NCBI GenBank assembly: GCA_037139975.1 | Contig: JBAXFJ010000002.1 | Span: 24,373 to 88,372 of the forward strand | Direction of reading: 5' to 3' | Source of the DNA: a bacterium | GTDB taxonomy: Bacteria; Patescibacteriota; Minisyncoccia; Phycocordibacterales; SBAW01 | DNA length: 64,000 nucleotides | Shown here: piece after piece, positions 5,514 to 29,239 of the stretch | Numbering within the stretch: position 1 is the stretch's first letter | Layout: every line of letters begins with the position of its first letter | Program-made: the position numbers and the translations under genes | Notes under the pieces: model-generated | Databases searched by the model: none | The model's input: only the letters and a program-made list of their open reading frames with translations | Told to the model about the DNA's origin: nothing

Positions 5514-5960
5514 TTGTTACGTTTTCTGTGTGTGTTGGCGTGCGTGCTGTGCAGCCCTGTTTTGGGTGCTGCGTGTGCGGCAGATGCGTCAAAAAAGTCA
5601 GTCTATACCACGGCAACGTGGTATGACTATAACGAAGGGCCGAAGCGGAGGATGGCAAACGGTGAAGTATTCGACAAAACCAAGCCGACGATTGCCCACG
5701 CCACTCTTCCACTCAACACACGAGCTTGGCTTGTAAATGTGAATGATCCAACCAAATCTATCGAGGTTGTGGTCGCCGACCGTCAAGCACGGTGGGTCCG
5801 GCAAGGTTGGCCCAACCGCGCAGTTGATGCAAATCTGCACGTCGCTCGGGCGCTTGGTTTTGGTCCTGGCGCAAACAAAGACTTGCTTCGTATTCGGGTC
5901 GAAGTGCTTTCTCTTCCTGTGGGGCACGCGCCCCCGAGCCGACGCAAAAGCAGCGGCTGA
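5514..5960 (+). CDS. RlpA-like double-psi beta-barrel (DPBB) lipoprotein/secreted protein
   Basis: N-terminal signal peptide. TATWYDYNEG...ANGEVFD...TIAHATLPLNTRAWLVNVNDPTKSIEVVVADRQ matches the RlpA DPBB pattern (ASWYG...TA.GE.fd...AAH..LP..t.v.V.N..NG.sv.vrI.DRGP). Confidence 0.6.
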   Translation: MLRFLCVLACVLCSPVLGAACAADASKKSVYTTATWYDYNEGPKRRMANGEVFDKTKPTIAHATLPLNTRAWLVNVNDPTKSIEVVVADRQARWVRQGWPNRAVDANLHVARALGFGPGANKDLLRIRVEVLSLPVGHAPPSRRKSSG

Positions 5961-5988
5961 CGGTATGTAGTGTTCTTTCCGCCCACAT

Positions 5989-6028
5989 GGCGAGCTCCCT
6001 TCCGTTGGGCTCGCCATTTTTCTTTTTT
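5989..6028 (+). terminator. rho-independent terminator after the rlpA-like gene
   Basis: GGCGAGC-13 nt loop-GCTCGCC followed by ATTTTTCTTTTTT. Confidence 0.7.
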
Positions 6029-6051
6029 AGATGAGGTAGAATAGAAAGTAT

Positions 6052-6918
6052 ATGGTCCGAGCAATCCCAGAGTCACGGCTGCGCGAGCGGCGCCGCAGGC
6101 GCCGCGCCTTTGCGCTTGGTCTTTTGTGTGCGTCGACTGTTTTGTTGTGTGTTGGTTTTGTGGCGCTTTCGCACGTGGCATTTTTGCGAGTCACTTCCGT
6201 TACGGTGTCGGGCACCAATGATGGTTTAGCAGAGCAGATACAAGCTTTTGTTAAAAGTAAAATGTCGGGCGCATACTTGCACCTCTTTGCGCGGGACAAC
6301 ATATTGCTGTACCCAAAAAGCAGCATAACCAAAGACCTGTCTGTTCAATTTCCTGAATTAAGAGATGTATGGGTGCGCACGGCAGACGTGCACCACGTTG
6401 AAGTCAGCGTGACCGAACGTCGGCCTGTTGCGCTGTGGTGCGACTCTGGGGTCGGGTCTCAATCCCAATCTCAGTCTTTGTCGGTCTCACCGTTTTTGTC
6501 GCAAGACACGTGTTTTTTCCTTGATGAAAATGGCCTTGCATACAAAGCTGTCGGCGACACCCCCACAACAAACTATCAAAAATATTTTGGCCCTGCCGCA
6601 ACAACCACGCTTCCCCGACAATATCTGACGCCCGATCAGTTTGTGTCGCTGTTTGCATTTGTTCAAGCGCTTGGTGGCAAGGTGCCGAACGAAACCATCG
6701 CTCACGTTTCTGTGGGTGGGCAGGGGAATGCGAATATTTCTTTTGCCAGCGGATTTGAGGTGCGCTTCTTACTCAGCGACAATGCGGGGGATGTGTTGCA
6801 GCGGTTTGTGTTGGCGCAAACAGCGGCACCATTTAGCACGCACAAGCTTTCTGACTTTTCCTATCTTGACCTGCGCTTTGGTGACAAGATTTACTATAAA
6901 TTAAAGGCGACTCCTTAG
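6052..6918 (+). CDS. cell-division protein FtsQ/DivIB-like (POTRA domain)
   Basis: Arg-rich N-terminus, a single TM (FALGLLCASTVLLCVGFVAL), then VTSVTVSGTN...VHHVEVSVTERRPVALW, which resembles the FtsQ POTRA pattern (v.G...v....P.a.W). Confidence 0.5.
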   Translation: MVRAIPESRLRERRRRRRAFALGLLCASTVLLCVGFVALSHVAFLRVTSVTVSGTNDGLAEQIQAFVKSKMSGAYLHLFARDNILLYPKSSITKDLSVQFPELRDVWVRTADVHHVEVSVTERRPVALWCDSGVGSQSQSQSLSVSPFLSQDTCFFLDENGLAYKAVGDTPTTNYQKYFGPAATTTLPRQYLTPDQFVSLFAFVQALGGKVPNETIAHVSVGGQGNANISFASGFEVRFLLSDNAGDVLQRFVLAQTAAPFSTHKLSDFSYLDLRFGDKIYYKLKATP

Positions 6919-6953
6919 CTTTGGAAGGTGTTGCCTTGGTGTGGTAGTGTCAG

Positions 6954-7958
6954 TTGATGCAAACCTTTTGGGACAAACTACCAAAGCCGTTTTTTGTATT
7001 AGCGCCGCTGGCCAACGTGACCGATGCGGCTTTTCGGCGCATGGTTGCAAAGTATGGCAAACCAGATGTGCTGTGGACCGAATTTGTCTCGGCCGACGGT
7101 CTGTGCCTGGCCAGTGCGGAGGGCAAGGCAAAGCTTATGCGTGACCTCGACTTCACCGAGACCGAACGACCCATCGTGGCACAGTTTTTCACCAGCAACC
7201 CCGAACGCATGGAGCAAGTCGCGCGCTTGGCGCGTGAGCTTGGGTTTGATGGTGTCGATATCAACATGGGCTGTCCCGACAAAACAATTGAGAAGCAAGG
7301 CGCAGGCGCAAAGCTCATCACACACCCCGCGCTTGCAGCAGAGCTCATCCGTGCCGCCAAGCGCGGGGCGGGCTCGGACTCGGGTGGCATCCCTGTGTCG
7401 GTCAAAACGCGCCTGGGTTACAATAAAGACGTTTTGGACGAGTGGCTGCCAGTTATTTTGGCTGAAGAGCCAGCCGCGGTGACCATACACGCGCGCACAC
7501 GCAAAGAGATGTCAAAAGTTGCTGCTCATTGGGAGCGGGTCGCGCGTGCGGTTGAGATTCGCGATGAATTGCAAAAAGATTCTGACAAAAAAACTTTAAT
7601 AATCGGCAATGGCGATGTAAAGACTGTTGCTGAAGCAAAGTTGCAAGCAGAGGAATCGGATGCCGACGGCGTGATGATTGGGCGCGGCATCTTTGGCGCG
7701 CCGTGGCTCTTTGGTCCAGAACATTCTCTTTCGCTTCCGCCTCTCGACGTTCGTCTGCGCATCGCGGTCGAGCATGCCTATTTGTTTGAAGAGTTGCTGG
7801 GAGACATTAAAAACTTTGCGCTCATGAAAAAGCACTTCAGGGTCTATGTTGAAGGCTTCCCCGGCGCGCGCGAGCTGCGCACGAGTCTAATGGAAACAAA
7901 CACGGCTGCTGAAGTGGAAAAGTTGATAGAAGAATTTTTGCAGACAGGAGTATACTAA
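6954..7958 (+). CDS. dus: tRNA-dihydrouridine synthase
   Basis: LAPLANVTDAAFRRM, GVDINMGCPDKTIEKQGAGAKL and VSVKTRLGY are Dus TIM-barrel motifs. Confidence 0.85.
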   Translation: MMQTFWDKLPKPFFVLAPLANVTDAAFRRMVAKYGKPDVLWTEFVSADGLCLASAEGKAKLMRDLDFTETERPIVAQFFTSNPERMEQVARLARELGFDGVDINMGCPDKTIEKQGAGAKLITHPALAAELIRAAKRGAGSDSGGIPVSVKTRLGYNKDVLDEWLPVILAEEPAAVTIHARTRKEMSKVAAHWERVARAVEIRDELQKDSDKKTLIIGNGDVKTVAEAKLQAEESDADGVMIGRGIFGAPWLFGPEHSLSLPPLDVRLRIAVEHAYLFEELLGDIKNFALMKKHFRVYVEGFPGARELRTSLMETNTAAEVEKLIEEFLQTGVY

Positions 7959-16432: not shown

Positions 16433-17296
16433 CTACGGCAATGTTTGAACTAAATAATTCGTGGTGTAGTACTCATTTACGGTATTCAGAGGAATCTTGG
16501 TTTGCACCAAGACTTGCACCTGGAGTCCTGGTGTGCTGGTGCTCATGTCGCCAACCATATCTAGTGCAGGCAAGGAATAGGTGTTCGCTGCAGTAATGGT
16601 AACTGGAGCGGTGTTGAATGCCTGTGCAGACGAGATTCGCATATTGTTCGCGACAGGCATAGTGTTTGAATCAGCCGCAAGCCAATCAGCAAATTTCATC
16701 GAGAGATCTGGTTCATTTGTTGGTACGGTTATGTTGAAGAGATAGCTCAATCCATCCGCATACGTATCATTAGCAACAGCACTGGTTTTCACTGGCGTGA
16801 TTGAGTCCACCTTGAGTGTACCTGCGCCGCTGGTGACCGTGCCACCTATGGTGCTGGTTGATGTAGCGTCCGGCGTGATGAAGTTCATAACCGCACCTCG
16901 ATACCACGCACCATCAACATTCGACCATGCTGCGAAGTAATACGTCGTATTTGGTGTGATGGGTAGAATGCCCATGACCGACGAAAGCGAAGCGGAGAAT
17001 GTGGTGTATGGAGCGATCACTCCAAGATCAGCTGTTGAGTAGACGCCAGTTGGGAGTTCTGGACCTTCAGTACTGAACGTGCTTGTTGAAACCCAGAATG
17101 AAGAATCGGACGTATACCCGTTGCCGTTAAAGGCGTTGAGTGTTGCGTCTGATGCGGTCACCCCAGTGGCAGCTTCGGTAGTAAGGGTAGGCGTTGCAGC
17201 ACTCGCCACAAGGGTGGATGACGCACTGAGTGCGAGCGCAGACAGCGTGAGTACGGAGAGGAACTTCCCAATGTTCACTGATATATTTTTTTGCAT
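16433..17296 (-). CDS. hypothetical secreted Thr/Ser-rich protein
   Basis: Signal peptide MQKNISVNIGKFLSVLTLSALALSASS. 287 aa, Thr/Ser-rich, and no catalytic motif recognised. Confidence 0.45.
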   Translation of the reverse strand: MQKNISVNIGKFLSVLTLSALALSASSTLVASAATPTLTTEAATGVTASDATLNAFNGNGYTSDSSFWVSTSTFSTEGPELPTGVYSTADLGVIAPYTTFSASLSSVMGILPITPNTTYYFAAWSNVDGAWYRGAVMNFITPDATSTSTIGGTVTSGAGTLKVDSITPVKTSAVANDTYADGLSYLFNITVPTNEPDLSMKFADWLAADSNTMPVANNMRISSAQAFNTAPVTITAANTYSLPALDMVGDMSTSTPGLQVQVLVQTKIPLNTVNEYYTTNYLVQTLP

Positions 17297-17405
17297 TGTA
17301 AATACTTATTGTTAGTAATTCCTACATACTTACAGAGGGATGCTGTAGGTCGAATGAGTTTTTATATAAAAAAGATTCACGAAAATATCATCCAGAACGA
17401 TATTG

Positions 17406-17433
17406 AAACTTTTTTGGGAAAAGAAAAAGCTGC
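17406..17433 (-). terminator. rho-independent terminator (minus strand)
   Basis: On the minus strand: GCTGCCC-CACACA-GGGCAGC followed by TTTTTCTTTT. Confidence 0.5.
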
Positions 17434-17559
17434 CCTGTGTGGGGCAGCGTGGTCAGCTTGAGAAGCTGAGGACCAGGTGCTATTTGATGATCGGTGGAAG
17501 CGGTCTCCCCAGATAGTTGCGACCTACACTGACCACCTTGTTGGATATGGGAGCATACA

Positions 17560-17772
17560 AAGGGAAATTATGACTATCAAACCACGGTAGCATCAGTGAT
17601 TTCTGTTGCTCGTCGGGCTAAGGCAATATTCGAAAGTTCTGAAGCGCACGAAAAACGAGCATTTCTCAACTATTTACTTCAGAACCCGACTGTATCGGGC
17701 AAAACCCTTGTATTTACAATGCGAAAACCCTTTGATGCAGTACTCGAAATAGCTAACTGTCCTCTCGGGCTG
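17560..17772 (+). pseudogene. remnant of a large-serine-recombinase 3' end (copy A1, ~70 codons)
   Basis: Encodes ...AKAIFESSEAHEKRAFLNYLLQNPTVSGKTLVFTMRKPFDAVLEIANCPLG, matching the C-terminus of the truncated recombinase at 19.5-19.7 kb. 17633-17772 is ~97% identical to 19603-19740 at DNA level. No upstream recombinase body. Confidence 0.6.
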
Positions 17773-17849
17773 CCGTCTGCGGACAAGTTCAGAATGGTCG
17801 ATTGGGCGCAGATAAGCAAGGAAATCAGTGTGTTTGGTTTGTTTGTATA

Positions 17850-17892
17850 AAAGAAAAAGCCGCCACTTCGTACGAGACGAAGCTTTGGCTTT
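17850..17892 (-). terminator. rho-independent terminator after the 177-aa hypothetical gene
   Basis: On the minus strand: hairpin GCCAAAGCTTCG-tctcgta-CGAAGTGGC followed by TTTTTCTTTT. Confidence 0.5.
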
Positions 17893-17923
17893 CGTCCCGC
17901 CGAGATGGCGGTGGTTGTTGGCA

Positions 17924-18457
17924 CTACCAGTCTGCTGTGCCAAATGCGGGCGATGCGTCATTTAGCCAATGGGTAACCTGGCTTTTTCCTGGACCCACCT
18001 CGTAGCTACTCGGATACAGGGCGAACTGTACCGGCGTCCCATTGGGCATCCGAGTTGTGGCCGTGTACCACATAAGGCCCGTGTCAGTATAGGTCGCCAC
18101 ACACGTGAACTCTGTGGTCAGGAGGTAGTGATTCAGGTGCGCCAATTGGTCTGTGACCCAACGCTTGCCTTCCCGACGCACGATGGGATCCATGGTGATC
18201 ATAGTGAGCTTAGGTCCTGCCCACTCCCAAGTTACGTTGGTGGCACGGCGATGTTTGCCTTTGAACCACAAATCCACCGTGCACATATCGAGTCCGGGAA
18301 TCTGAGTGAGGTCGCCGAGGCTTTTCGGCAGATCGCCGTTCGGCATCAGAATGAACGTGGGAAGCTGCTTTCCGCTCGTAACACCATTGTTTGAGGTCCC
18401 GACGACCTTCCCGCTACCGCCCGCGAGTATCCGGTTGTCTCTCTGAGGTCTGTTCAC
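17924..18457 (-). CDS. hypothetical protein (island cargo, unknown function)
   Basis: 177-aa ORF with no recognisable motif. It sits between the two recombinase remnants. Confidence 0.4.
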   Translation of the reverse strand: MNRPQRDNRILAGGSGKVVGTSNNGVTSGKQLPTFILMPNGDLPKSLGDLTQIPGLDMCTVDLWFKGKHRRATNVTWEWAGPKLTMITMDPIVRREGKRWVTDQLAHLNHYLLTTEFTCVATYTDTGLMWYTATTRMPNGTPVQFALYPSSYEVGPGKSQVTHWLNDASPAFGTADW

Positions 18458-18734
18458 TGGGTGACTCCTTGTCTGAGGAAGTAGAAGTAACTGCTGTCTC
18501 TTGTAAGATAATACAATGTAATGTGATAAATAGCAAGTAGACGTGATGTTTCAAGCAATGAAATGAGTGTGTTTGATTCGATATGTTCTACTTCTGCACG
18601 GACAGTTGGCAATCAGATGTTTCCTTGCCCGTATCGGTAGTTACCCTAAACCAAGTTCATCTCTTTCTGTTGCCAACTGCAGTTGCATTTCAAGTTCATC
18701 TATTACGATTTGTATAGACTCATGGACGGGATTT

Positions 18735-19796
18735 GTGAGGATTGGTTATAGGAATATTGTACTGGATGCAGAGAAGCGATTGCGAAAGGATATAGTTCTT
18801 GACCCTGAGCGGGCGCACCTTATTGAACGTCTCTTTCAGTTGTACGCCTCTGGTAATTATTCGGTTACGACCGCTCTTGCTGAAATTACACGTCTCGGCC
18901 TCCGTAGCCACACTGGCAATCCTCTTGCTCGTAGCAATATTGAGACAATTCTAAAAGACCCTTTTTATTATGGAATGGCTCGCTCAAAAAAATACGGTAA
19001 CTACCCGCACCGCTATCCGCACATCATTACCCGAGAGCTGTTCGAGCAATGCCAAGAGGTATTTCGTGGCCGCCACAAATCGACCTCCAAGCCAGTATCC
19101 GACCTGTTTATGTTTAAAGGGCTTCTGCATTGTGCTAACTGCGGTTGCCTTATGACCCCCGAGCGTAAAAAGGGCTATCTTATCTACTATTCCTGCACGA
19201 ATGCCAGAGGAGTATGCAAGCGGTTATATATACCCGAACAAACCCTCCTAAAGCCCGTACAGAGCGTATTTGAGGCGTTTGAGGCAATGCCCAAGGAAGT
19301 TGAGGAGCGGCTCTTGAGCGAGCTTAGAGCTTCAAACGAGGGCGAAGTTGAGTACCACAAGAAAGAGCTTGTTCGCATCCGCGCCGAGTACGACCGGACG
19401 CAGACCCGCGCTAACTCGCTGATGGACTTGCTCATCGACAAGAGTATTACTAAGGATGATTATGACAAAAAACTGCAAGAGCTAAAAGATAAACAATACC
19501 GTTTGGACATCGAAGCCGAAGAGCATACTCGCGCCGACCATGACTACAAACTCACTATCTCACAAGTGTTTTCTCTTTCTCGAAGGATGGGCGAAATTTT
19601 TAAAAGTTCTGAGGTGCACGAAAAACGAGCATTTCTCAACTATTTACTTCAGAACCCGACTGTATCGGGCAAAACCCTTGTATTTACAATGCGAAAACCC
19701 TTTGATGCAGTACTCGAAATAGCTAACTGTCCTCTCGGGCTGTGTCTCCTGAACAAAATCCGAACTTTTTTCCAAAACAATCCAACTGCTGACTAA
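18735..19796 (+). pseudogene. large serine recombinase lacking its N-terminal catalytic resolvase domain (copy A2)
   Basis: From GYRNIVLDAEKRLRKD onward it aligns with residues ~150-500 of the intact recombinase at 27690..29198 (recombinase domain, Cys zinc ribbon CANCGC...C..C, coiled-coil). The first ~55 codons of ORF 18567..19796 are unrelated junk with stops upstream. The catalytic-Ser region is absent. Confidence 0.6.
19603..19740 (+). repeat. direct repeat of recombinase 3' end (A2), ~97% identical to 17633-17772 (A1)
   Basis: Direct comparison. Both copies end ...cctctcgggctg, and the flanks differ after that. Confidence 0.8.
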
Positions 19797-20011
19797 TCGC
19801 ACGCGCGGAGCGCGTGGTGACTTGAAACTGCCTCGTACGCTCCGATTGAGTGGTGAAGCGAACCAATGCGCCTCGGACACGCTCGCGGACTCGCGTGTGC
19901 AAAAACCAAAAAATTTCCTTGCATTTTCCTCGCGTCTCCTCCCCCCACCCCTCCACCGCGAAGCGGAAAAAGAAATGGAAAGGAAATTTTTGGTTTTGCT
20001 TCGCCGTTTCA
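19741..20011 (+). repeat. element X, copy 1: ~270-bp GC-rich sequence, perfect inverted repeat of 27204-27472
   Basis: The reverse complement of 27204-27472 matches 19741-20011 essentially base for base (tgtctcctgaacaaaatccgaac ... ggttttgcttcgccgtttca). It contains several hairpins (CACGCGC-GGA-GCGCGTG and ACACGC...GCGTGT) and a C-rich tract (cctccccccacccctccacc). Confidence 0.85.
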
Positions 20012-20354
20012 GACTACAAAATGAACATTGGTATTATATCGCTTTGTGATTATTGTGCGTTGTTCATTCCTCCGTCCTCACGGCGACCGAGGCGCCCTGC
20101 TATCCGAGCTTTGTGGTAACTCTAACGCTCGCGAACCACACACAACCGCCTACGCATAGCCCGCTCGCATTCGCTCACGCTGGCTGCTTCGGCGTTGCGT
20201 GTGTTCGCTTGGTGGCTTCGAGAGAGTCTTGTGGTGGCTCTAAAGAATATGGGTTGTGCTAGGGGCACAAATAGATCTGTATGTGCTTGCCCCACCCACC
20301 CAGTGCGCACACAAGCCCGCTCGCAAAGACGAGAGGGTACGAGCGGGAGCTCCC

Positions 20355-23300
20355 TTAATTTAATCCATCGGCCATCAATTCTGCTTGTTTCAAGACATTT
20401 TCAGTCGCAATCAACTGTTCGTCTGGTGGATAGCCATATTTATTCAAGATTCTTTTCACATCACGACGTAATTTCGCGCGAACATTTTCTTTTAGTGTCC
20501 AGTCAATCGTTGCATTGCCTTTGACACTTTTTAGCACCTCCATTGCAATAACTGCTAACTGCTTGTCGCCAAGCACCTCTTTCGCACTCTCACTGTTGGC
20601 AAGGGCATCGTAGAAAGCGAGCTCATCCTCGTTCAAATCCAAACCCTCTCCTCTTTTGTCTGACTGCCTGATGTCTTTAGCGATTTTTATCAATTCTTCT
20701 ATGACCTGTGCTGAAGTCAAAAGATTGTTTTGATACTTACGGATAGCATTCTCAAGCATTTCAGACAATTTCTTGCTCTGAATAAAGTTCTTTCTTGTTC
20801 TCGTTCTTATTTCGTCATTTAAGAGTTTCTTTAGAAGTTCAAGTGCAATATTTTTTCGCTCCATATGCCGTACTTCTTCCAAAAATTCATCTGAAAGAAT
20901 AGAAATGTCTGGCTTCTTAATTCCAGCCGCATCAAATACATCAACAATACCTTCAGAGACAACTGCCTTATCTACTATTTGCCGAATGGCTGTTTCAATT
21001 TCCGCATCAGACTTGCCTCCGCCTGATGGTTCAAACTTTGTCAGACGCGCTTTAATTGCTTGGAAAAAGCCAACTTCGTCTTTAAGTTCCATAGCTTTTA
21101 AATTTGGGACAGACAGCGCAAATGCTTGCGACAATAAACCAACTTGTTTTGTATATCTATTTTTTCCGTCTTCTAATCCCAAAATATGTTCTTGCGCCTC
21201 AAGAATAATCGTCAGTTTTGCTCGCGTGTCACTGACAAAGTATTTTTTATAATCAAAACCATTAAACATCTGCTCAACGATTTCAAACTTCTCCAGCAGA
21301 GTCGCCACGGCTTCATTTTGATCAAGAGTAGGTGCACCTTGTCCGCCACTTGCTGTATAGGTTGCGAGAGCCGACTTCAAATCAGAAGCAATGCCAATAT
21401 AGTCCACAATCAAACCGCCCGGCTTATCCTTAAACACCCTATTCACACGAGCAATGGCTTGCATAAGATTGTGTCCGCGCATTGGCTTGTCCACATACAT
21501 CGTATGTAAACACGGCACATCAAAACCAGTCAGCCACATATCCCGCACGATAACCAAACGAAGTGGGTCCTTCTCGTCCTTAAATCGCTCACCAATAGCT
21601 TTTCGGTCTTGTTTGCTTGTACTGTGCGTTTGCCAATTTTCAGGATCAGAAGATGAAGAAGTCATTACCACTTTTATTGCGCCTTTTTTAAAATCAGTAT
21701 CGTGCCAATCAGGACGAATTTTAATAATCTCTTCGTACAGTTCAACCGCAATCCGACGACTCATACACACAATCATTCCTTTACCTTCAAAAGCTTCTCG
21801 TCTTTTTTCAAAGTGATCCACCACATCAGCAGCAACTACAGCTAATCTGTCTCTGTGACCAACAATGGCCTCTAATTGTGCCCATTTTGCTTTCGCCTTG
21901 TCTTTTGCATTACTTTCTTCACACTCAGTAATTGATTCCACCTCTTCATCGAGTTTAGCCGCTTCTTCTGGCTTCAGATGCACTTTTGCCAGTCGTGATT
22001 CATAATAAATACGCACAGTCGCGCCATCTTCTACTGCTTGTGCGATATCATAAACATCAACATAGCTTCCGAACACCGCCGGTGTTGAGGCGTCTTCTTT
22101 TTCAATAGGTGTTCCGGTAAATCCAATAAACGATGCTGCAGGTAAAGCATCACGTAAATATTTTGCAAAGCCATATTTCGTAAATATTTCACCATCTTTC
22201 TCGGTGGTCTTTGCACCAAATCCATACTGACTACGATGCGCTTCATCAGCGATAACAATAATATTTTTTCTATCAGATAATAAATCAAAATTCACAGCAC
22301 CGTCTTCAGGGAAAAACTTTTGAATAGTTGAAAAGATAATTCCTCCACCAGCAACTTTCAAAAGCTCTTTCAAATTTTGTCGATTTTCAGCTTTTACTGG
22401 ATCTTGCCTGAGCAATTGCTTACATCCAGCGAAAGTATCGAAAAGCTGTTCGTCCAAATCGTTTCTGTCAGTAATAACCACAATCGTTGGATTGTTCAAT
22501 TTTAAAACTGTCTTTCCAGTATAGAAAACCATCGAGAGAGATTTTCCACTTCCTTGCGTATGCCACACGACGCCGGCTTTTCTGTCGCCGTTTTCACTAG
22601 ATGCCACAAGTGTCTTTTCAATCGCCTTATTCACCGCAAAATACTGATGATACGCCGCGATTTTTTTGACAGTAATAACCGATGCCAAACCAGTTTTTTC
22701 ATCTTCTTTTTTTGTTTTTTCAAATACCACAAAATACCCGACAAGATCCAGAAGCACTTGTTTGTTCAACATTCCCTTTGTCAGTGTTTCAATCTGTGGA
22801 ACAGTCGCCTTGTCTTCTTTGTATCCGTCGCTCGATTTCCACGCGAGGAAACGAGAAATATCCGATGAAATAGTTCCCATTTTGGCATCCAGACCATCAG
22901 ACGCCACCAAGGCGGCGTTATAGTAGAAAAGTGAAGGAATGGCGTTTTTGTAATTCTGTAGTTGCGTAAAGGCTTTGGCAACGGTAGCATTTTCATCCAC
23001 CGGATTTTTGAGTTCAATCACCACCAGTGGTAAACCATTTACAAACAAAACCACATCTGGTCGCTTTGTAATATTATTTTCCGTCACCGTGAATTGATTG
23101 CACACTATAAATTCATTGTTCTCGACATTGTCAAAGTCCACCAGTCGCACTTTGTCGCCCTTGATGCCATCCGCTCCCAACACTTCTACTTCTATGCCTT
23201 CGGTGAGCAGGCGATGAAAAGCTTCATTGTTGTCCATCAAGTTTTGGCTCGGCAAGTTGAGCACCATGCGGAGCGCCTGCTCTTTGGCCTCATCCGCAAT

Positions 23301-23468
23301 AGTGGGATTGAGAGTATCAATCGCATGCTTCAAGCGATTCCTCAAAACCACCTGTCCCAAATCAGTGCGTTCTAACTCTTGATCCTCCGGCGACAAATAC
23401 TGCCAACCTTGATTTTCCAAAAGCTCGATGACTAATTCTTCAATTGTTGATTCAAATATTTTAGTCAT
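20355..23468 (-). CDS. hsdR: Type I restriction enzyme, R subunit
   Basis: 1037 aa. SF2 helicase motifs (GSGKS-like [15 protein letters not shown] box [11 protein letters not shown]) and an N-terminal nuclease region, typical of HsdR. Confidence 0.9.
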
Positions 23469-23479
23469 AAATTATATTT

Positions 23480-24091
23480 TTACTTGTCATCAATTTCTCT
23501 GTTTTGAAAATCCACCAAAGCTTCTTTGTATGCTTCGTAATCTGTGGCATACAAAACCTTACTTGGTAATAATGTTATTTTACCAAAGGTAATTTTTTCA
23601 TAATCTTCATCAAATGAATCGTTAAAATCTGTATTCTCTTCATATTTGATTTGAATATCAAAAACAGCCTCTCGTATTTCTCTTTCTGATTTTGCTTGCT
23701 CAACTTTTTCAGTATATTCAATCTTTCTTAGGACCGAACGTTTTTCCATCTGGTTTTCTTCATGCTTCTGATAAAACTTTTTAGAAACAAGAGAAAGCCA
23801 CCATACAAACACAAAAGAAGAAGTAAATGGAATTATGAAAAGATGCAAAACACTTAATACATCAAAACGATACATTTGTGCCATGTAATCCACTTTCAGG
23901 ATTTGCTGCGTTTTCAGAATAGTCTCCTGGTCTGCAAAAAATAGTGTATATACAAACTTCCAATTTGTGACAATCCATGAAATAAGAAAATAAAAATACA
24001 TCGGACTAAAAAGTCGGTCTTGTATTATTTCCCCAGCTTTTTCAAAAGCTTTTGAAGTTGTTTCTGTAATTTTTGATAGTGAGTTTTCCAT
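23480..24091 (-). CDS. hypothetical two-TM membrane protein embedded in the Type I R-M operon (function unknown)
   Basis: 203 aa. TM1 SPMYFYFLISWIVTNWKFVYTLFF, TM2 VLSVLHLFIIPFTSSFVFVWWLSLV, then a charged ~100-aa C-terminal domain. 12 bp after hsdR and 4 bp before hsdS. Confidence 0.5.
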   Translation of the reverse strand: MENSLSKITETTSKAFEKAGEIIQDRLFSPMYFYFLISWIVTNWKFVYTLFFADQETILKTQQILKVDYMAQMYRFDVLSVLHLFIIPFTSSFVFVWWLSLVSKKFYQKHEENQMEKRSVLRKIEYTEKVEQAKSEREIREAVFDIQIKYEENTDFNDSFDEDYEKITFGKITLLPSKVLYATDYEAYKEALVDFQNREIDDK

Positions 24092-24094
24092 AAC

Positions 24095-25360
24095 TTAATT
24101 ATTAAACCCTTTAACACGAACCTCACCTTTCATTAATTTTGGCAAAAGGGTATCGCGGAGAGCGGAGAGGGTTTGGATTTGGAAACAATTACCAGATATT
24201 TTTTCCATAATAGGATCTGCTAACATAAAATATTTTTCTAATACACTTTTTGTTGGGATTAAAAAATCAAAATTATTGACATCATTTTTATTGATATGTT
24301 GCTGAGCCCCACCAGTGGCAGTATTTATAATATTTGAGACATTTTCCACCATCCAATAGTAAAGATAAGAAGAAGAAAATTTCTCATTCGGCAAAAGCCC
24401 TATAACTGATTGATTTCCGGCTGACTCAATTTCCAAGCGACTAATTTGCCCAAGAGTTGCTCCAGTAATTGCAATAACAACCGTTCCTTTCGGCATGAGT
24501 TTCGCTGCTGACTCCTCAAGAGCTTTTTTGGTGATATATGCGGATGGTTCATATATTCTAAAATCATTAACCTTTCCAGAATTTATCCAAGGAACTGTTC
24601 CGTCCTCCCAATACTCTTTTTTTTCTGTATTTGGAGTTCCTCCCAAAATTGTTTGTATTTCATCCCCCAACTTCCCAACTATCCATCCCTCTGGAATTTG
24701 GCTGAGTTCTAAATCAATCATTTTGCGGGTAGCACCGGGAAAATTAAAATTTACAAACCACTCTTTAAAAATCACTTGCGCAATAGCTTCAAGGGTTTTG
24801 TTCTGCTCACGTAAAAGCTCAACCTTGCTATCCAAAGACGACAACACTGCCGCAATGACACGCTGTTCGGAGAGTTCAGGAATCGTAAGTGAAAGACCCT
24901 TCAGCTTAGTAATAGTATATGCTTCTTGAGTAGAACCAATTTTTGCATATGATAAAATTTCTTTTCCCTGTGGAGAAACTATCCAATAAAAAAGAAATTT
25001 CGGAAGCAAATCTTTATAGTTTCGGAACCAAGTCAAATTTCCATCTTTAAAATAAAACTTGAGATCTCTTTCCACCAAGTAAGGATTCCCGAGTGTTCCA
25101 ACTGAGGTTAGTAAAATATCATTTTCTTCAGGGACTCCAAAATTATTTTTTATATCATTATATTTTTCTTCAGATATAAATAATTCAGTTGATATATTGT
25201 GTCCATTATATTTTTCTGTAATTTCTTTCCCTCTAAAAAATGGGATACCAAAAGTTTTGTATTCTTCGGCAAAAATCCTCTTTGACGACGTAATCTCTGC
25301 CACCTTTCCCAATGTCGTCATTTTCCAGCCTTTTGGAATTGTAGAAGTTTGATCTGCCAT
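24095..25360 (-). CDS. hsdS: Type I restriction-modification specificity subunit
   Basis: 421 aa with two target-recognition-domain halves separated by conserved repeat regions (LSEQRVIAAVLSSLDSKVELLREQNKTLEAIAQVIFKEWF and LPKLMKGEV). Confidence 0.85.
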   Translation of the reverse strand: MADQTSTIPKGWKMTTLGKVAEITSSKRIFAEEYKTFGIPFFRGKEITEKYNGHNISTELFISEEKYNDIKNNFGVPEENDILLTSVGTLGNPYLVERDLKFYFKDGNLTWFRNYKDLLPKFLFYWIVSPQGKEILSYAKIGSTQEAYTITKLKGLSLTIPELSEQRVIAAVLSSLDSKVELLREQNKTLEAIAQVIFKEWFVNFNFPGATRKMIDLELSQIPEGWIVGKLGDEIQTILGGTPNTEKKEYWEDGTVPWINSGKVNDFRIYEPSAYITKKALEESAAKLMPKGTVVIAITGATLGQISRLEIESAGNQSVIGLLPNEKFSSSYLYYWMVENVSNIINTATGGAQQHINKNDVNNFDFLIPTKSVLEKYFMLADPIMEKISGNCFQIQTLSALRDTLLPKLMKGEVRVKGFNN

Positions 25361-25362
25361 AA

Positions 25363-26910
25363 TTATTCTAAATTAAACCCAACATTTTTGAGTTGTTTTT
25401 TTATTTCTTCATCCAATTTCTTTTCTTCGGCCATCTGCTCTGCGAGTTTAGTGGTCAATCCAGCGATTTTGTCGGCAAACGGAATACCGTCGTCAATTTC
25501 ATCTTCTATACCGACATATCTTCCCGGAGTAAGAACAAAATTATGTTTGGTGATTTCCTCTATGCCCGCTGATTTGCAAAAACCTTTGATGTCTTTGTAT
25601 TTACCATCGCGCTTGCGCCACTCATGATAGGTGCCGGCGACTTTTGCCATATCGTCTTCTGAAAATTCACGGTGTGTTTTGTCTGCCATGTGGCCGACTT
25701 CGCTCGTGTCGATGAAAAGAATTTCTCCTGTGCGCTTCCTGTCGCCATTACCTGTGCGCTTGCGCGAGATAAACCAAATACACGCCGGAATGCCAGTGTT
25801 ATAAAAAAGCTGTTTCGGAAGTGCAACGATACAATCCACCAAATCATTTTCAATCAGTGACTTTCTAATATCACCCTCATTGTTGGTCTGACTGGAAAGT
25901 GAGCCGTTCGCAAGCACACACGCCATTACACCATGTGGTGAGAGGTGGTAGATCATGTGCTGAAGCCACGCATAGTTGGCATTTGAAGCTGGAGGCATAC
26001 CGTATTGCCAACGTGGATCATTTTGGAGAAGTTGCCCAGACCAGTCGCTGTCATTGAAAGGCGGATTTGCTAAGACAAAATCGGCTTTAAGGTCTTTATG
26101 TGTGTCATTCAAAAATGAGCCTTCAGTGTTCCATTTCACTTGTGAGCCATCAATGCCACGAATAGCAAGGTTCATTCGGCACAAGCGGTATGTTGTTTGG
26201 TTACTTTCTTGTCCGTAAATAGAAATATCCTCAACATTTCCTCGATGTTCTTTGATGAATTTTTCACTCATAATAAACATCCCGCCACTACCACAAGCTG
26301 GGTCATATACTCTGCCTTTGTATGGCTCAATCATTTCCACCATGATGCGGACGATTGATTTTGGCGTGTAGAATTGTCCGCCTTTTTTACCTTCAGCGTT
26401 TGCAAATTCACCAAGGAAATACTCATATACTCTACCGAGTAAATCTTTACTTTTTGCCGCTTCGGTACCAAGGGCGATATTGCCGACCATATCAATGAGT
26501 CCGCCAAGCGATGCTTTGTCTAGATTTGGGCGGGCGTATACTTTTGGCAAAATACCTTTGAGTGTCGGATTTTCCTTTTCTATTGCCTCCATGGCGTCGT
26601 CGAGGTCTTTTCCAATAGACGGAAGTTTGGCGCGTGAGTGAAGATATGACCAACGGGCAATTTGCGGAACGAAAAAGACATTTTCTGCGCGATATTCATC
26701 GGCGTCTTCAGGATTCGCTCCATAAAAATCATTACCACCGGCTTTTATCTTTGCATACAACTCTTCAAATGAATCCGAAATGTATTTGAGAAAGATGAGT
26801 CCAAGCACAATATGCTTATATTCTGCAGCGTCCATATTCTTGCGCAACTTATCTGCCGCCTTAAACAGCGTCTTCTCAAATGATTCTGTTTTGTTGTTTT
26901 CTTTTTTCAT
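25363..26910 (-). CDS. hsdM: Type I restriction-modification DNA methyltransferase (N6-adenine)
   Basis: 515 aa. NPPF motif ([12 protein letters not shown]), SAM-binding [10 protein letters not shown], and an HsdM N-terminal domain. Confidence 0.9.
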
Positions 26911-26912
26911 AA

Positions 26913-27110
26913 TTATTTCTGTATCAAGTCATCAACCTTGATTTCGAGTGCCTTGGCTATTTTAGACAAGGTGTCGATTGTGGGGTTTTGATTGACTCCA
27001 TTCTCAATCTTAACAATCGTATTGAGAGACAAATCGGCAAGTCGAGCGACTTTTTCGAGGGAATAGCCTTTTTCGGCTCTGATCTTTTTTAAATTGCTTG
27101 CAATGCTCAT
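26913..27110 (-). CDS. XRE-family helix-turn-helix transcriptional regulator (controller-like, first gene of the R-M operon)
   Basis: 65 aa: [32 protein letters not shown]. It ends 3 nt before the hsdM start. Confidence 0.7.
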
Positions 27111-27203
27111 ATGAAATCTTGTATAATTTAGTATATAGAATATAATATAAATTATGGATTCTTTACATTTAAATCATACCGAATTTATGAGCAAAAGTAA
27201 ATA

Positions 27204-27472
27204 TGAAACGGCGAAGCAAAACCAAAAATTTCCTTTCCATTTCTTTTTCCGCTTCGCGGTGGAGGGGTGGGGGGAGGAGACGCGAGGAAAATGCAAGGAA
27301 ATTTTTTGGTTTTTGCACACGCGAGTCCGCGAGCGTGTCCGAGGCGCATTGGTTCGCTTCACCACTCAATCGGAGCGTACGAGGCAGTTTCAAGTCACCA
27401 CGCGCTCCGCGCGTGCGATTAGTCAGCAGTTGGATTGTTTTGGAAAAAAGTTCGGATTTTGTTCAGGAGACA
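27204..27472 (-). repeat. element X, copy 2 (inverted relative to 19741-20011)
   Basis: See copy 1. The outer end joins a recombinase 3' end through the same ...ggctg|tgtctcctg junction. Confidence 0.85.
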
Positions 27473-27475
27473 CAG

Positions 27476-27606
27476 CCAAAATTCAGAATTCGTTTTTTCG
27501 CCAAAATTCGGAGCGTCGCAAAGCGACGCGACGGGGGTTTCCGCCAGAATTCGCCAAGGGTTTTTGAAATCCAAAAGAAGCGAGCGGGACGCGAGGCGGG
27601 GGTTTA
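27476..27606 (-). repeat. recombinase 3'-end repeat B' (perfect 131-bp inverted copy of 29040-29170)
   Basis: The reverse complement is identical to the last 131 bp of the intact recombinase gene (encoding NPRLASRSLLLDFKNPWRILAETPVASLCDAPNFGEKTNSEFWL). Here it continues in frame into X, giving the tail ...CLLNKIRTFFQNNPTAD. Confidence 0.85.
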
Positions 27607-27689
27607 TGATGAGTACATCATTCAAAACTTCGTTTTGCGAGCCAATCTGGAAGCGAATAACTATCAATATTTAACATAAACTTTTTTCT

Positions 27690-29198
27690 ATGAACAAATT
27701 CTTTCTTTACGCCAGAAAATCTACCGACGAGCCCGATCGTCAGATTTTGAGTATTGAATCGCAGATTGACGAGTTGAAAGAATTTGCAGAGCGAGAGCAG
27801 TTAGAGATTGTTGAAACTTTTGTTGAATCACAGACCGCTAAAGAGCCGGGCAGACCTATTTTCAACAATATGCTCTCGCTCATAGAAAAAGGCAAAGCGT
27901 CGGGAATTTTAGCTTGGCATCCCGATAGATTGGCAAGAAATAGTATTGATGGTGGAAAGATAATCTATCTGTGTGACCTCGGTAAAATTAAAGAGCTAAA
28001 ATTCCCGACATTTTGGTTCGACGCTACGCCACAAGGTAAGTTTATGTTAAATATTGCTTTTGGGCAGAGCAAATACTATGTAGATAATCTTTCAGAGAAT
28101 GTGAAGCGTGGACTTCGCCAAAAAGTAAGACGAGGCGAACAAAGTGGTCAAGCACCGACGGGATATTTGAATGACAAGTTGAACAAGAAAATTGTTCCCG
28201 ACATGGAGAGATTTCGCCTCGTCAAAAAAATGTTCGAAGTCTACGCTACTGGAAATTATTCTCTGAAAGATACGAGGAATTTGCTCGCCCAAAAGGGCTT
28301 GGTGTCTAAAAATGGTAAAGTTCTCACTATTTCAAACACGCAAATGATATTGAGAAATCCTTTTTACTATGGAATGTTTTTATTTAACAAAGAACTTTAC
28401 CAAGGAAAGCACGAGCCAGCGATTTCAAAGAAACTTTTTGATAAATGCGCGGAAGTATCGGCGAGGAATGCTCACCCGATGAAGCGAGGAATTAACAAGC
28501 ATGTTTTTCGCGGAATATTTTTGTGTGAAGAATGCGGTTGTGGCATAACCAGCGAAGTGCAAAAAGGTCATACCTATTATCGTTGTACCAAAAAGAAAGG
28601 TGTCTGCACACAAAAATATATCCGCGAAGAATTCCTCGCCGAACAAGCTAATGACATTATCAAAAAAGTTTCTTTGTCGTCAGAGTGGAAAGAATTCATG
28701 CTCGCTGAACTCGACAAGGAACAAGCGAGCAGTTTCCACTCTGACGCCCTTTTCGTTCAAAATCTGAAAAATCAAATCAAAAGTGTTGAGGAGACGCTAG
28801 ACAGGCTTCTTGACGCTCATTTGGACAGCGCCATTACGAGCGAGGAGTATATCGGGAAGAAGCAAAAACTCCTCAACCAAAAGATTGATTTTTCAGAGAA
28901 ATTGAATGATTTTGAACGAAAAGGTAATCGCTGGCTCGAACTTTCTAAACAATTCATTTTAGACAGTAACCAAGCCATAATTATCGCTTCCGAAGAAAAT
29001 CTCGAAGCCAAAAGAGATTTTCTTAAAAAGATTGGCTCGAACCCCCGCCTCGCGTCCCGCTCGCTTCTTTTGGATTTCAAAAACCCTTGGCGAATTCTGG
29101 CGGAAACCCCCGTCGCGTCGCTTTGCGACGCTCCGAATTTTGGCGAAAAAACGAATTCTGAATTTTGGCTGGGATACAGGGATTCGAACCCCGATTAA
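27690..29198 (+). CDS. large serine recombinase (integrase), full length
   Basis: 502 aa. N-terminal resolvase catalytic domain (YARKSTDEPDRQ...SIESQ), recombinase domain, Cys zinc ribbon (CEECGC...C..C) and a C-terminal coiled-coil. The last 11 codons overlap tRNA-Gln on the opposite strand. Confidence 0.85.
   Translation: MNKFFLYARKSTDEPDRQILSIESQIDELKEFAEREQLEIVETFVESQTAKEPGRPIFNNMLSLIEKGKASGILAWHPDRLARNSIDGGKIIYLCDLGKIKELKFPTFWFDATPQGKFMLNIAFGQSKYYVDNLSENVKRGLRQKVRRGEQSGQAPTGYLNDKLNKKIVPDMERFRLVKKMFEVYATGNYSLKDTRNLLAQKGLVSKNGKVLTISNTQMILRNPFYYGMFLFNKELYQGKHEPAISKKLFDKCAEVSARNAHPMKRGINKHVFRGIFLCEECGCGITSEVQKGHTYYRCTKKKGVCTQKYIREEFLAEQANDIIKKVSLSSEWKEFMLAELDKEQASSFHSDALFVQNLKNQIKSVEETLDRLLDAHLDSAITSEEYIGKKQKLLNQKIDFSEKLNDFERKGNRWLELSKQFILDSNQAIIIASEENLEAKRDFLKKIGSNPRLASRSLLLDFKNPWRILAETPVASLCDAPNFGEKTNSEFWLGYRDSNPD
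29040..29170 (+). repeat. recombinase 3'-end repeat B (partner of 27476-27606)
   Basis: See B'. The copy ends ...ttttggctg, where the last bases are the complement of the tRNA-Gln CCA, discriminator and acceptor end. Confidence 0.85.
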
Positions 29199-29239
29199 AG
29201 GCTTCAAAGGCCTCTGTCCTACCATTAGACGATATCCCA
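29166..29239 (-). tRNA. tRNA-Gln (anticodon UUG), 74 nt with encoded CCA
   Basis: Reverse complement TGGGATATCGTCTAATGGTAGGACAGAGGCCTTTGAAGCCTTTAATCGGGGTTCGAATCCCTGTATCCCAGCCA. U1:A72 acceptor pair typical of tRNA-Gln, 7-bp acceptor stem, D-loop GG, anticodon loop CUUUGAA, T-loop TTCGAAT. Confidence 0.85.

Follow-up and report, generated by a model that had tools for sequence, protein, structure and literature searches.

Why would a recombinase gene be preceded by a perfect inverted copy of its own 3′ end? This question is raised by LSR1, a large serine recombinase (LSR) gene on the plus strand (27690-29198; 502 aa) of the window, by which we mean the 64,000-nt stretch of contig JBAXFJ010000002.1 (Patescibacteriota assembly GCA_037139975.1) analysed here. 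An earlier reading of the sequence (referred to as the original prediction) likened LSR1 and its two flanking copies to an invertase-type switch around one gene, by which the enzyme would exchange its own C-terminus. Our analysis points instead to a family-wide architecture of an integrative element, made up of a left junction (attL), an inverted attachment site of the element itself (attP) and a right junction (attR). More specifically, we consider it probable (at roughly 75%) that the window contains a small integrative island of ~19743-29171, which was inserted by its own LSR at the extreme 3′ end of a tRNA-Gln gene and which retained a spare inverted attP. At the level of sequence comparison, this reading is carried by the anatomy and conservation of the sites, the spacing of a motif within them, the conservation of a C-terminal tail as protein, the occurrence of both configurations among relatives and the co-evolution of the repeat arms.

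The attachment sites of LSR1

Comparison of the window with itself revealed two inverted-repeat arms (27473-27604 and 29040-29171) of 132 nt each that were 100% complementary and lay 1435 nt apart, and a perfect match of this length within 64 kb rules out chance. The original prediction had recognised a real and perfect repeat that brackets the gene, but its arms of 131 nt (27476-27606 and 29040-29170) were off by 1-3 nt. Moreover, the repeat corresponds to the penultimate 132 nt of the gene rather than to its last 131, with 27 tRNA-derived nt lying beyond it, and the gap between the left arm and the ATG at 27690 measures 85 bp rather than 84 bp.

The open reading frame (ORF) of LSR1 was identified as an LSR because it combines the Pfam domains Resolvase (PF00239; E 3e-22, residues 5-150), Recombinase (PF07508; 177-256) and Zn_ribbon_recom (PF13408; 273-316), in the catalytic, recombinase and zinc ribbon order of this class. 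In the AlphaFold model of a homologue (P0005), the zinc ribbon domain contained a coiled-coil with helices at 331-378, 384-411 and 414-434 (predicted local distance difference test (pLDDT) score of 80-93), followed by short strands at 453-460. Every feature of a serine integrase that we tested was present in the enzyme.

The right repeat arm (29040-29171, plus strand) encodes LSR1 residues N451-L494 (NPRLASRS...NSEFWL) and reaches 6 nt into the 3′ end of a tRNA-Gln(UUG) gene on the opposite strand (29166-29239; ARAGORN, and Rfam RF00005 with 66 bits). These 6 nt (29166-29171) read TGGCTG, the reverse complement of CAGCCA, and comprise the last acceptor-stem base, the discriminator base and CCA; since the identity between the arms ends with this block, common to attP and the tRNA 3′ end, the crossover must fall inside it. 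The final 27 nt of LSR1 (the last 8 codons, GYRDSNPD, and the stop) are reverse-complement tRNA-Gln, so that the protein tail is encoded across the tRNA gene, as had been noticed before.

The left arm (27473-27604, minus strand) is in turn adjoined by a stretch that we refer to as X. The original prediction overlooked that X is itself repeated, with 269 nt being identical between 19743-20011 and 27204-27472 in opposite orientation, and that these copies bracket a restriction-modification cargo. In the copy next to the left arm (27204-27472, minus strand), the first 54 nt (27419-27472) code for a tail, CLLNKIRTFFQNNPTAD, and a stop codon, whereas the remainder is GC-rich and contains a hairpin (27218-27313). 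A minus-strand ORF (27419-27667; 82 aa) accordingly ends in ...NSEFWL-CLLNKIRTFFQNNPTAD, and exchange between the two repeat copies would swap GYRDSNPD for this tail, just as predicted. As had also been noticed, the same tail closes an upstream ORF (18567-19796) that contains LSR2 (18567-19742, plus strand), an older and N-terminally truncated recombinase that lacks the Resolvase domain. An exact-protein look-up found no protein on record that equals the 82-aa ORF product, and it traced P0073 to a protein from a different sample.

Sequence alignment revealed four junctions in the window that all change partner at one CTG. At 17772, a recombinase 3′-end fragment (P3) gives way to an X-like sequence that differs from X (tail A); at 19742, the end of LSR2 (P2) gives way to X; at 27473 (reverse complement), the 132-nt end of LSR1 (P1) gives way to X; and at 29171, P1 gives way to tRNA-Gln. 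We read the right gene-tRNA junction as an attR (P-core-tRNA), in which the right arm would be the P arm and the tRNA the B′ half of the original attB, and the left arm together with X as a complete inverted attP (P-core-P′; referred to as attP2). Since X adjoins it, the left copy would then be a complete attachment site rather than merely a spare gene end.

This assignment was examined in related loci. At least 589 confirmed relatives came to light when one genome per species was scanned. For comparison we retained 80 loci (these and further loci are referred to by L numbers), all from metagenome-assembled genomes of Candidate Phyla Radiation (CPR)/Patescibacteria, with recombinases that are 50-97% identical. 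They stem from SPAdes, MEGAHIT and other assemblies, and include one closed chromosome (CP174360.1). In 40 out of 40 loci, a (C/T)GAAC motif, corresponding to the T-loop of the tRNA, begins at +14 on the tRNA side and at +19 on the X side, a difference of exactly 5 bp. Rutherford et al. (PMC3783163) showed for serine integrases that the attB copy of the zinc-ribbon-domain motif is shifted by 5 bp towards the centre relative to the attP copy. This family displays the same offset, which is decisive for assigning the tRNA side to attB and the X side to attP.

Of the two tails, the one encoded by X is the native C-terminus. The 120 best homologues mostly diverge directly after ...W/L-L, with most of them continuing into reverse-complement tRNA (e.g. 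GDLDSNQD...SYH) or stopping 2 residues on, and ~15 of them carrying an X-type tail, so that the alternative C-termini foreseen by the original prediction do occur in nature. Over 25 distinct X sequences the tail followed the motif C-[LF]-L-x-[KED]-[IV]-R-T-[FH]-F-x-x-N-P. Nucleotide entropy in these tails was 1.12, 0.64 and 1.39 at codon positions 1, 2 and 3, and synonymous codons were used for Arg (CGA, AGA, CGC) and Thr (ACT, ACG, ACC, ACA), pointing to a coding constraint in addition to any DNA motif. In the AlphaFold model of P0005, which carries an X tail, a C-terminal helix (490-506; pLDDT 75-79) follows a disordered linker (474-488). Because the X tail is conserved at the protein level while the tRNA-encoded tails follow whichever tRNA was hit, the X tail is the ancestral one, which clearly answers the question of ancestry that had been left to an alignment of homologues; the tRNA-encoded tail is a by-product of integration via the gene-internal attP rather than a designed alternative.

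In our reading, the attP of the element (P-core-P′) would lie inside the 3′ end of its recombinase gene, with P spanning approximately the last 44 codons before the core, and P′ (X) consisting of the codons for the conserved 17-residue tail followed by a structured GC-rich stretch. A full second attP would lie inverted 85 bp 5′ of the gene. Integration via the gene-internal attP would yield attR at 29040-29171 (gene-P-core-tRNA), with the native tail swapped for 8 tRNA-encoded residues, and attL as core-X at 19743, while leaving the inverted attP (27204-27604) intact. As a consequence of the latter, the recombinase would come to lie between inverted P arms and the cargo between inverted X arms, and two such nested inverted-repeat pairs are present in the window. 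On the circular form that would precede integration, the two inverted attP sites would constitute an inverted repeat of 230-420 bp dividing the recombinase from the cargo segment. Integration could proceed via either attP, and RecA-type homologous exchange between the arms could in addition flip the recombinase or the cargo segment in situ. Two configurations would result, namely a gene that runs into the tRNA and has its tail truncated, or one that faces away from the tRNA and retains its native tail. A single-stranded DNA hairpin substrate, as in CTX phage, was rejected by reasoning, as a stem cut by a serine recombinase would leave hairpin-capped chromosome ends.

Serine integrases cross over at a 2-bp central dinucleotide and need a directionality factor for excision. 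The two tails may differ in function, and an extension of the proposed scheme, which we deem rather unlikely, is that integration reprograms the enzyme: the episomal form would have the conserved C-terminal helix and would lose it upon insertion via the gene-internal attP, changing its activity or directionality, until arm exchange restores the native gene from the stored copy. Loss of the helix could silence the integrase, leaving the spare attP harmless, or could permit excision without a separate directionality factor. If true, this would amount to a self-contained, one-protein and DNA-encoded mobility toggle, belonging to a family of recombinases that recognise the T-loop common to all tRNAs and can hence be redirected from one tRNA species to another.

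The layout in related genomes

In approximately 65 of the 80 loci, the 75-160 nt that precede the core recur in inverted form 50-150 bp 5′ of the start codon, mostly with 97-100% identity to the gene end. The original prediction had made its case depend on finding this upstream copy in homologous islands, and in this respect it held. In 58 of the 80 loci the gene end overlaps the 3′ end of an opposite-strand tRNA gene (Gln, Asn, Ser, Ala, Gly, Trp, Leu or His). The independently assembled L002 (GCA_020049755.1) provides a close parallel, with an LSR that is 95% identical, a 133-nt inverted repeat of 100% identity with 1433 nt between its arms, flanked by X-like sequence to the left and by tRNA-Gln to the right, while its arm differs from that of the window at many positions.

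Irrespective of the tRNA, an X-like sequence (TGTyTyTTGAAC.AAATCCGAACTTTTTT...AAAATCC) was found to the left of the upstream arm in every locus, which indicates that X is part of the element and not host sequence. Moreover, 17 other loci with enough flank have a second X copy in direct orientation 1.2-7.7 kb upstream. This copy begins precisely at the core, and the sequence before it is unrelated apart from the shared 5-7-nt core (e.g. TGGCGG for tRNA-Ser). An unrelated flank followed by core and X is the expected look of attL (B-core-P′). A model in which X is the chromosomal B arm, and a palindromic attP is made up of both repeat ends, was rejected, as X is conserved irrespective of host and tRNA and a further copy of it is found at attL. 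The arm always terminates with the last 6-7 nt of its tRNA (TGGCGG for Ser, TGGCTCC for Asn, TGGTGG for Ala), by which the tRNA is left intact.

Could the repeat be an artefact, produced by a de Bruijn path that folds back through a shared node where integrated and excised forms coexist? The window does stem from a SPAdes contig (NODE_24_length_173832; ENA ERZ4222710), and a direct repeat within it (17646-17772 and 19616-19742) is exactly 127 nt long, the largest SPAdes k. However, the same inner junction between arm and spacer was obtained from dozens of independent samples with different assemblers (NODE_, k141_ and scaffold_ contigs as well as CP174360.1), and its k-mers must have been present in the reads. 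Arm lengths also vary (75-160 nt), and arm sequences differ between loci while matching within them. The recurrence across assemblers and samples effectively refutes an artefact, to which we assign a negligible probability.

Another option is that 27473-29171 is a 1.7-kb transposon resembling an insertion sequence (IS), with terminal inverted repeats and the recombinase as transposase, that landed between X and the tRNA. This would agree with the many contigs of ~1.8-2.3 kb that hold the recombinase alone between inverted ends, and with L049, in which such a unit lies between two inverted tRNA-Ser copies without X. Against it, the left arm borders on X in essentially all loci, regardless of host and tRNA, and this X extends the reading frame with a conserved peptide, has the motif spacing of an attP and is found again, as attL, beyond the other end of the cargo. 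The left flank is thus a family-conserved, in-frame X rather than the unrelated target DNA expected outside the repeats of a transposon. The mobile unit therefore reaches past the left arm to include the cargo, and a target-site duplication was not seen, making an IS-like unit most improbable. L049 itself (5634-7569) has its recombinase segment between inverted tRNA-Ser(GGA) copies (93 nt, 98% identical), and its two arms are different variants; it could be a product akin to cassette exchange, a hybrid of two elements or a mis-join.

The position of the upstream copy might in turn suggest a mainly regulatory role, with the recombinase autoregulating at an attP copy between its own gene and that of an XRE-family helix-turn-helix (HTH) protein, like a resolvase at res, and the repeat geometry being incidental. 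In most loci the copy indeed lies in the divergent XRE-LSR intergenic region, and its position 50-150 bp 5′ of the gene is conserved. Yet an operator needs ~50 bp and not 230-420 bp that are near-identical to the other site, start codon and core are ~217 bp apart, the upstream copy overlaps with no convincing promoter, and loci in the alternative configuration are left unaccounted for, so that we judge a regulatory site unlikely. The 85-bp spacer between attP2 and the ATG of LSR1 (27605-27689, plus strand) is conserved in L002, L006 and L007, and contains cgagccaatct, a short stretch that matches, in inverted orientation, the KIGS codons immediately 5′ of the right arm. A promoter or leader is presumed in this spacer, which would flip along with LSR1, and no strong promoter match was found within it.

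The inverted isomer that the original prediction called for was encountered in relatives. The 1947-bp metagenome contig L165 matches it exactly: a plus-strand tRNA-Gln (25-98) is followed by the inverted arm (93-224), the LSR, the other arm (1660-1791; again 1435 nt apart) and X, and the recombinase ends in ...FWLCLLNKIRTFFQQNPSED. Likewise, in L006 (of which the recombinase is 97% identical to LSR1), L013 and L023 the tRNA immediately precedes the upstream arm, and the gene points away from the tRNA. In L083 the recombinase, P, core and X are followed by genes for an XRE protein, a methylase, a restriction enzyme and a reverse transcriptase, and P-core-X was also found at the gene end in L084. 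The orientation of the cargo varies as well, with the XRE gene lying by attL in L019 and by the inverted attP in most other loci.

The two arms of a locus moreover seem to evolve together. Over the last 100 nt of the arm, median identity was 98% between the two arms of one locus (100% in 22 of 55 loci), 82% between an arm and its closest counterpart in another locus, and 56% between arms from loci of the same tRNA class; in 44 of the 55 loci the arms were closer to each other than to those of any other locus. Such a pattern is compatible with gene conversion between the arms or with their frequent exchange. An exact 35-nt stretch across the inner end of the window arm recurs in 67 metagenome contigs (L105-L171), where it adjoins many different tRNA-Gln sequences and one tRNA-Asn (L160), a distribution that seems to indicate recent spread across hosts. 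In the same contigs, the 10 nt nearest to the core occur as a few discrete variants (CTGAAACTTG, CTATTTTTTG, CTACTTTTTG), and the arms of one locus sometimes differ in them.

Does the segment then switch? In a genuine inversion switch, close to the original prediction, the LSR or RecA would often flip the 1.43-kb gene segment within the integrated island, toggling between a tail-less and a native-tail enzyme of differing activity. The perfect or near-perfect arms in most loci, despite fast divergence between loci, would be expected from frequent exchange; close relatives are found in either orientation; the tail shows conservation at the protein level, with a helix predicted for it; and contigs very often break at the arms. 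However, the two orientations were seen only across different genomes, and a ratio of 58 to 3 speaks against free flip-flop. Both products would also arise without switching in situ, by the use of alternative attP sites at integration. Furthermore, the tail may be dispensable, as tail-less genes are intact in hundreds of genomes, and canonical LSRs do not recombine attP with attR (PMC3783163). We therefore regard a frequent switch as conceivable but doubtful.

Several observations also weigh against the integrative island with a spare attP, to which we nevertheless give preference. For the population of the window, a circular form and orientation isomers are predictions, and the bias between the configurations (58 versus 3 among the 80 genome loci) is not predicted by equivalent attP copies. 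No pair of the same species and locus in opposite orientations was found among the fetched loci, and some intact genes (L003, L131) have no upstream copy. Arms are not always identical either (82-91% in L165, L106 and L045), which implies that the copy is not regenerated in every cycle. The attL of the window carries the P arm of an older element instead of a chromosomal B arm, so that an attR-like site must have been the target, a reaction not performed by canonical LSRs. Canonical serine integrases recombine attP with attB only (PMC3783163); an extra attP has no known role among them and should be a hazard. Finally, no recombination directionality factor was identified in the cargo.

Loci without an upstream copy mostly contain N-terminally truncated recombinase fossils (86-242 aa) beside a tRNA, and LSR2 is one such fossil. 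Such fossil attR ends, having neither upstream arm nor cargo, are frequent (L124, L143, L162, L163, L164, L132, L135, L109, L140). Intact recombinases in L028, L050 and L020 end in a second, different X-like sequence instead of a tRNA, and these right junctions suggest insertion beside the P′ arm of another element, or unintegrated forms.

Assembly contigs often break at the arms, and contigs of ~1.9 kb consist wholly of arm, recombinase and arm (e.g. L084), which accounts for the many orphan recombinase contigs of ~1.8-2.3 kb. For metagenomics, the architecture thus explains both the recurrent breaks and these orphans.

Likeness to known recombination systems

The layout is common to hundreds of ultra-small (CPR) bacterial genomes, and appears to be the architecture of a very large family of mobile islands in CPR/Patescibacteria, with thousands of homologous proteins and at least 589 confirmed stretches, that ferry restriction-modification and other cargo between lineages. 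An origin from phage or plasmid was rejected, as IMG/VR contained 2 family members only and plasmid matches did not exceed 31% identity.

With the serine integrases of phages (phiC31, Bxb1, A118/LI, SPbeta), the family shares the Resolvase, Recombinase and zinc ribbon domains with a long coiled-coil insert, hybrid junctions at a short common core, and a presumed zinc-ribbon motif that lies 5 bp closer to the centre on the host side (PMC3783163). Unlike those integrases, it targets the 3′ ends of many different tRNA genes, its attP lies inside the integrase coding sequence so that the C-terminus changes upon integration, it retains another complete attP in inverted form, its elements form islands of 3-10 kb instead of prophages, and new copies appear to integrate into occupied, attR-like sites. 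For serine integrase biology, this raises the role of the extra inverted attP and whether tail loss alters activity or directionality. For genome engineering, the family offers natural examples of one scaffold retargeted among eight tRNA species, in which the T-loop motif is kept and the arm end is changed to the last 6-7 nt of the tRNA.

Integrases of the archaeal SSV1 type have their attP inside the int ORF and target tRNA genes, and the integrated gene differs from the episomal one. The attachment site within the recombinase ORF, the tRNA target and the change of the gene upon integration are thus shared with our family. However, the SSV1-type enzymes are tyrosine recombinases of archaeal viruses, and their gene is split into two large parts, whereas here a serine recombinase exchanges only its last ~17 codons, with a spare 3′ end present in cis. 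Despite its attP within the ORF, the serine enzyme with its tail-only exchange therefore falls outside the SSV1 type.

Hin, Gin and Cin are serine recombinases of ~190 aa with a C-terminal HTH that act on 26-bp sites with the help of a Fis-dependent enhancer and change a neighbouring gene. As in our family, the recombinase gene is associated with (and in the case of Hin located inside) a segment between inverted sites, the inversion of which alters expression. LSR1, in contrast, is a 502-aa enzyme with integrase-type C-terminal domains and composite attachment sites of 230-420 bp, and it is its own C-terminus that would change.

The FLP system of the yeast 2-micron plasmid is based on a tyrosine recombinase that acts on identical sites (FRT) and amplifies a replicating plasmid. 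The circle proposed here would resemble it in having two long inverted repeats that hold the recombination sites and two unique segments, one of which codes for the recombinase. In contrast to the 2-micron plasmid, no replication gene was seen, and recombination of attP with attP is not known from LSRs. Recombinase-mediated cassette exchange (RMCE) with phiC31 likewise uses two inverted attP sites on one molecule, either segment of which can be exchanged into an attB pair, and L049 looks like such a product; RMCE, however, is a laboratory design. The element hence resembles SSV1-type integrases, Hin, the 2-micron plasmid and RMCE in single respects, and is a member of none. The combination of a tRNA 3′-end target, an attP within the own gene, a duplicated inverted attP and tandem accretion at the same tRNA differs from these known systems, and no natural element with a dual inverted attP layout, nor a description of this family, was found in the literature searched.

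Cargo and older remains in the window

In our reading, the order of the island is attL, cargo, inverted attP, LSR and attR. The second X copy (19743-20011, plus strand) would be the P′ arm of attL and the left end of the LSR1 island, and lies in direct orientation relative to attR. As in tRNA-targeting islands, the tRNA-Gln gene is intact, the core CTG occurs again (19740-19742) beside X, and the GC content is foreign, with ~40% for the cargo segment versus ~50% for the rest of the window and the flanks. Classical islands of this kind have a tyrosine recombinase, whereas that of the window has a serine-type one.

The cargo between the X copies (20355-27110, minus strand) was assigned by Pfam to a type I restriction-modification system and an XRE-family HTH gene. 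It comprises hsdR (20355-23468), a 203-aa gene without Pfam match (23480-24091) between hsdR and hsdS, hsdS itself (24095-25360), hsdM (25363-26910) and the XRE-family gene (26913-27110), all on the minus strand, the latter being divergent from LSR1. An XRE-family HTH protein of 65-71 aa is almost always encoded by the first cargo gene next to X, usually divergent from the recombinase across the inverted attP (L019, L025, L028, L036, L041, L043, L057, L078, L080, L083 and the window), and may be a regulator or a directionality factor. The ~340 nt that separate hsdR from the attL copy of X (20012-20354) are non-coding and GC-rich, unlike the AT-rich cargo.

Both X copies of the window contain a hairpin (19902-19997 and 27218-27313) with a C-rich or G-rich run as its loop (e.g. 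GGCGGAATTCCCCCCACACCCCCCTTCCGCC; the run of the window reads cctccccccacccctcc), and a comparable hairpin past the stop codon of the tail is conserved in L015, L028, L043, L019, L025, L036, L072 and L074. The orientation of its loop relative to the core varies among loci in flip/flop fashion, and the hairpin had no Rfam match. That X is an RNA gene, such as the 3′ end of a tmRNA- or tRNA-like molecule, was rejected, given that Rfam at gathering thresholds gave no such match across the window and ARAGORN found no tmRNA; at E≤1, Rfam yielded no matches across 17200-20500 either.

Upstream of the island, the 3′ end of LSR2 sits in attL at the position where a chromosomal B arm is expected, which argues for tandem accretion at one tRNA. 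It seems that an older element provided, with its attR, the integration target of the LSR1 element, so that a tandem array of ~17.39-29.17 kb arose, and the P2-X junction at 19742 would suggest a relaxed choice of partner. A third recombinase 3′-end fragment of 203 nt (17570-17772, plus strand) shares its last 127 nt with the end of LSR2 (19616-19742) as an identical direct repeat, and continues at the same CTG into tail A (17773-17840), a transition that we read as an older junction of the array. A decayed X-like stretch lies at 17391-17415, the end of tail A recurs over 26 nt at 18553-18578, and a GC-rich 177-aa ORF without Pfam match is located at 17924-18457 (minus strand). The region 17385-19796 would therefore hold the remains of at least two older elements, with the 127-nt repeat and tail A fitting no unique order of events. 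Decay of a different kind is seen in the cargo-less L007, where 17 nt of the attL X are fused to the inverted arm at an AAAAT microhomology (5760-5810), the cargo, the second X and the core having been deleted.

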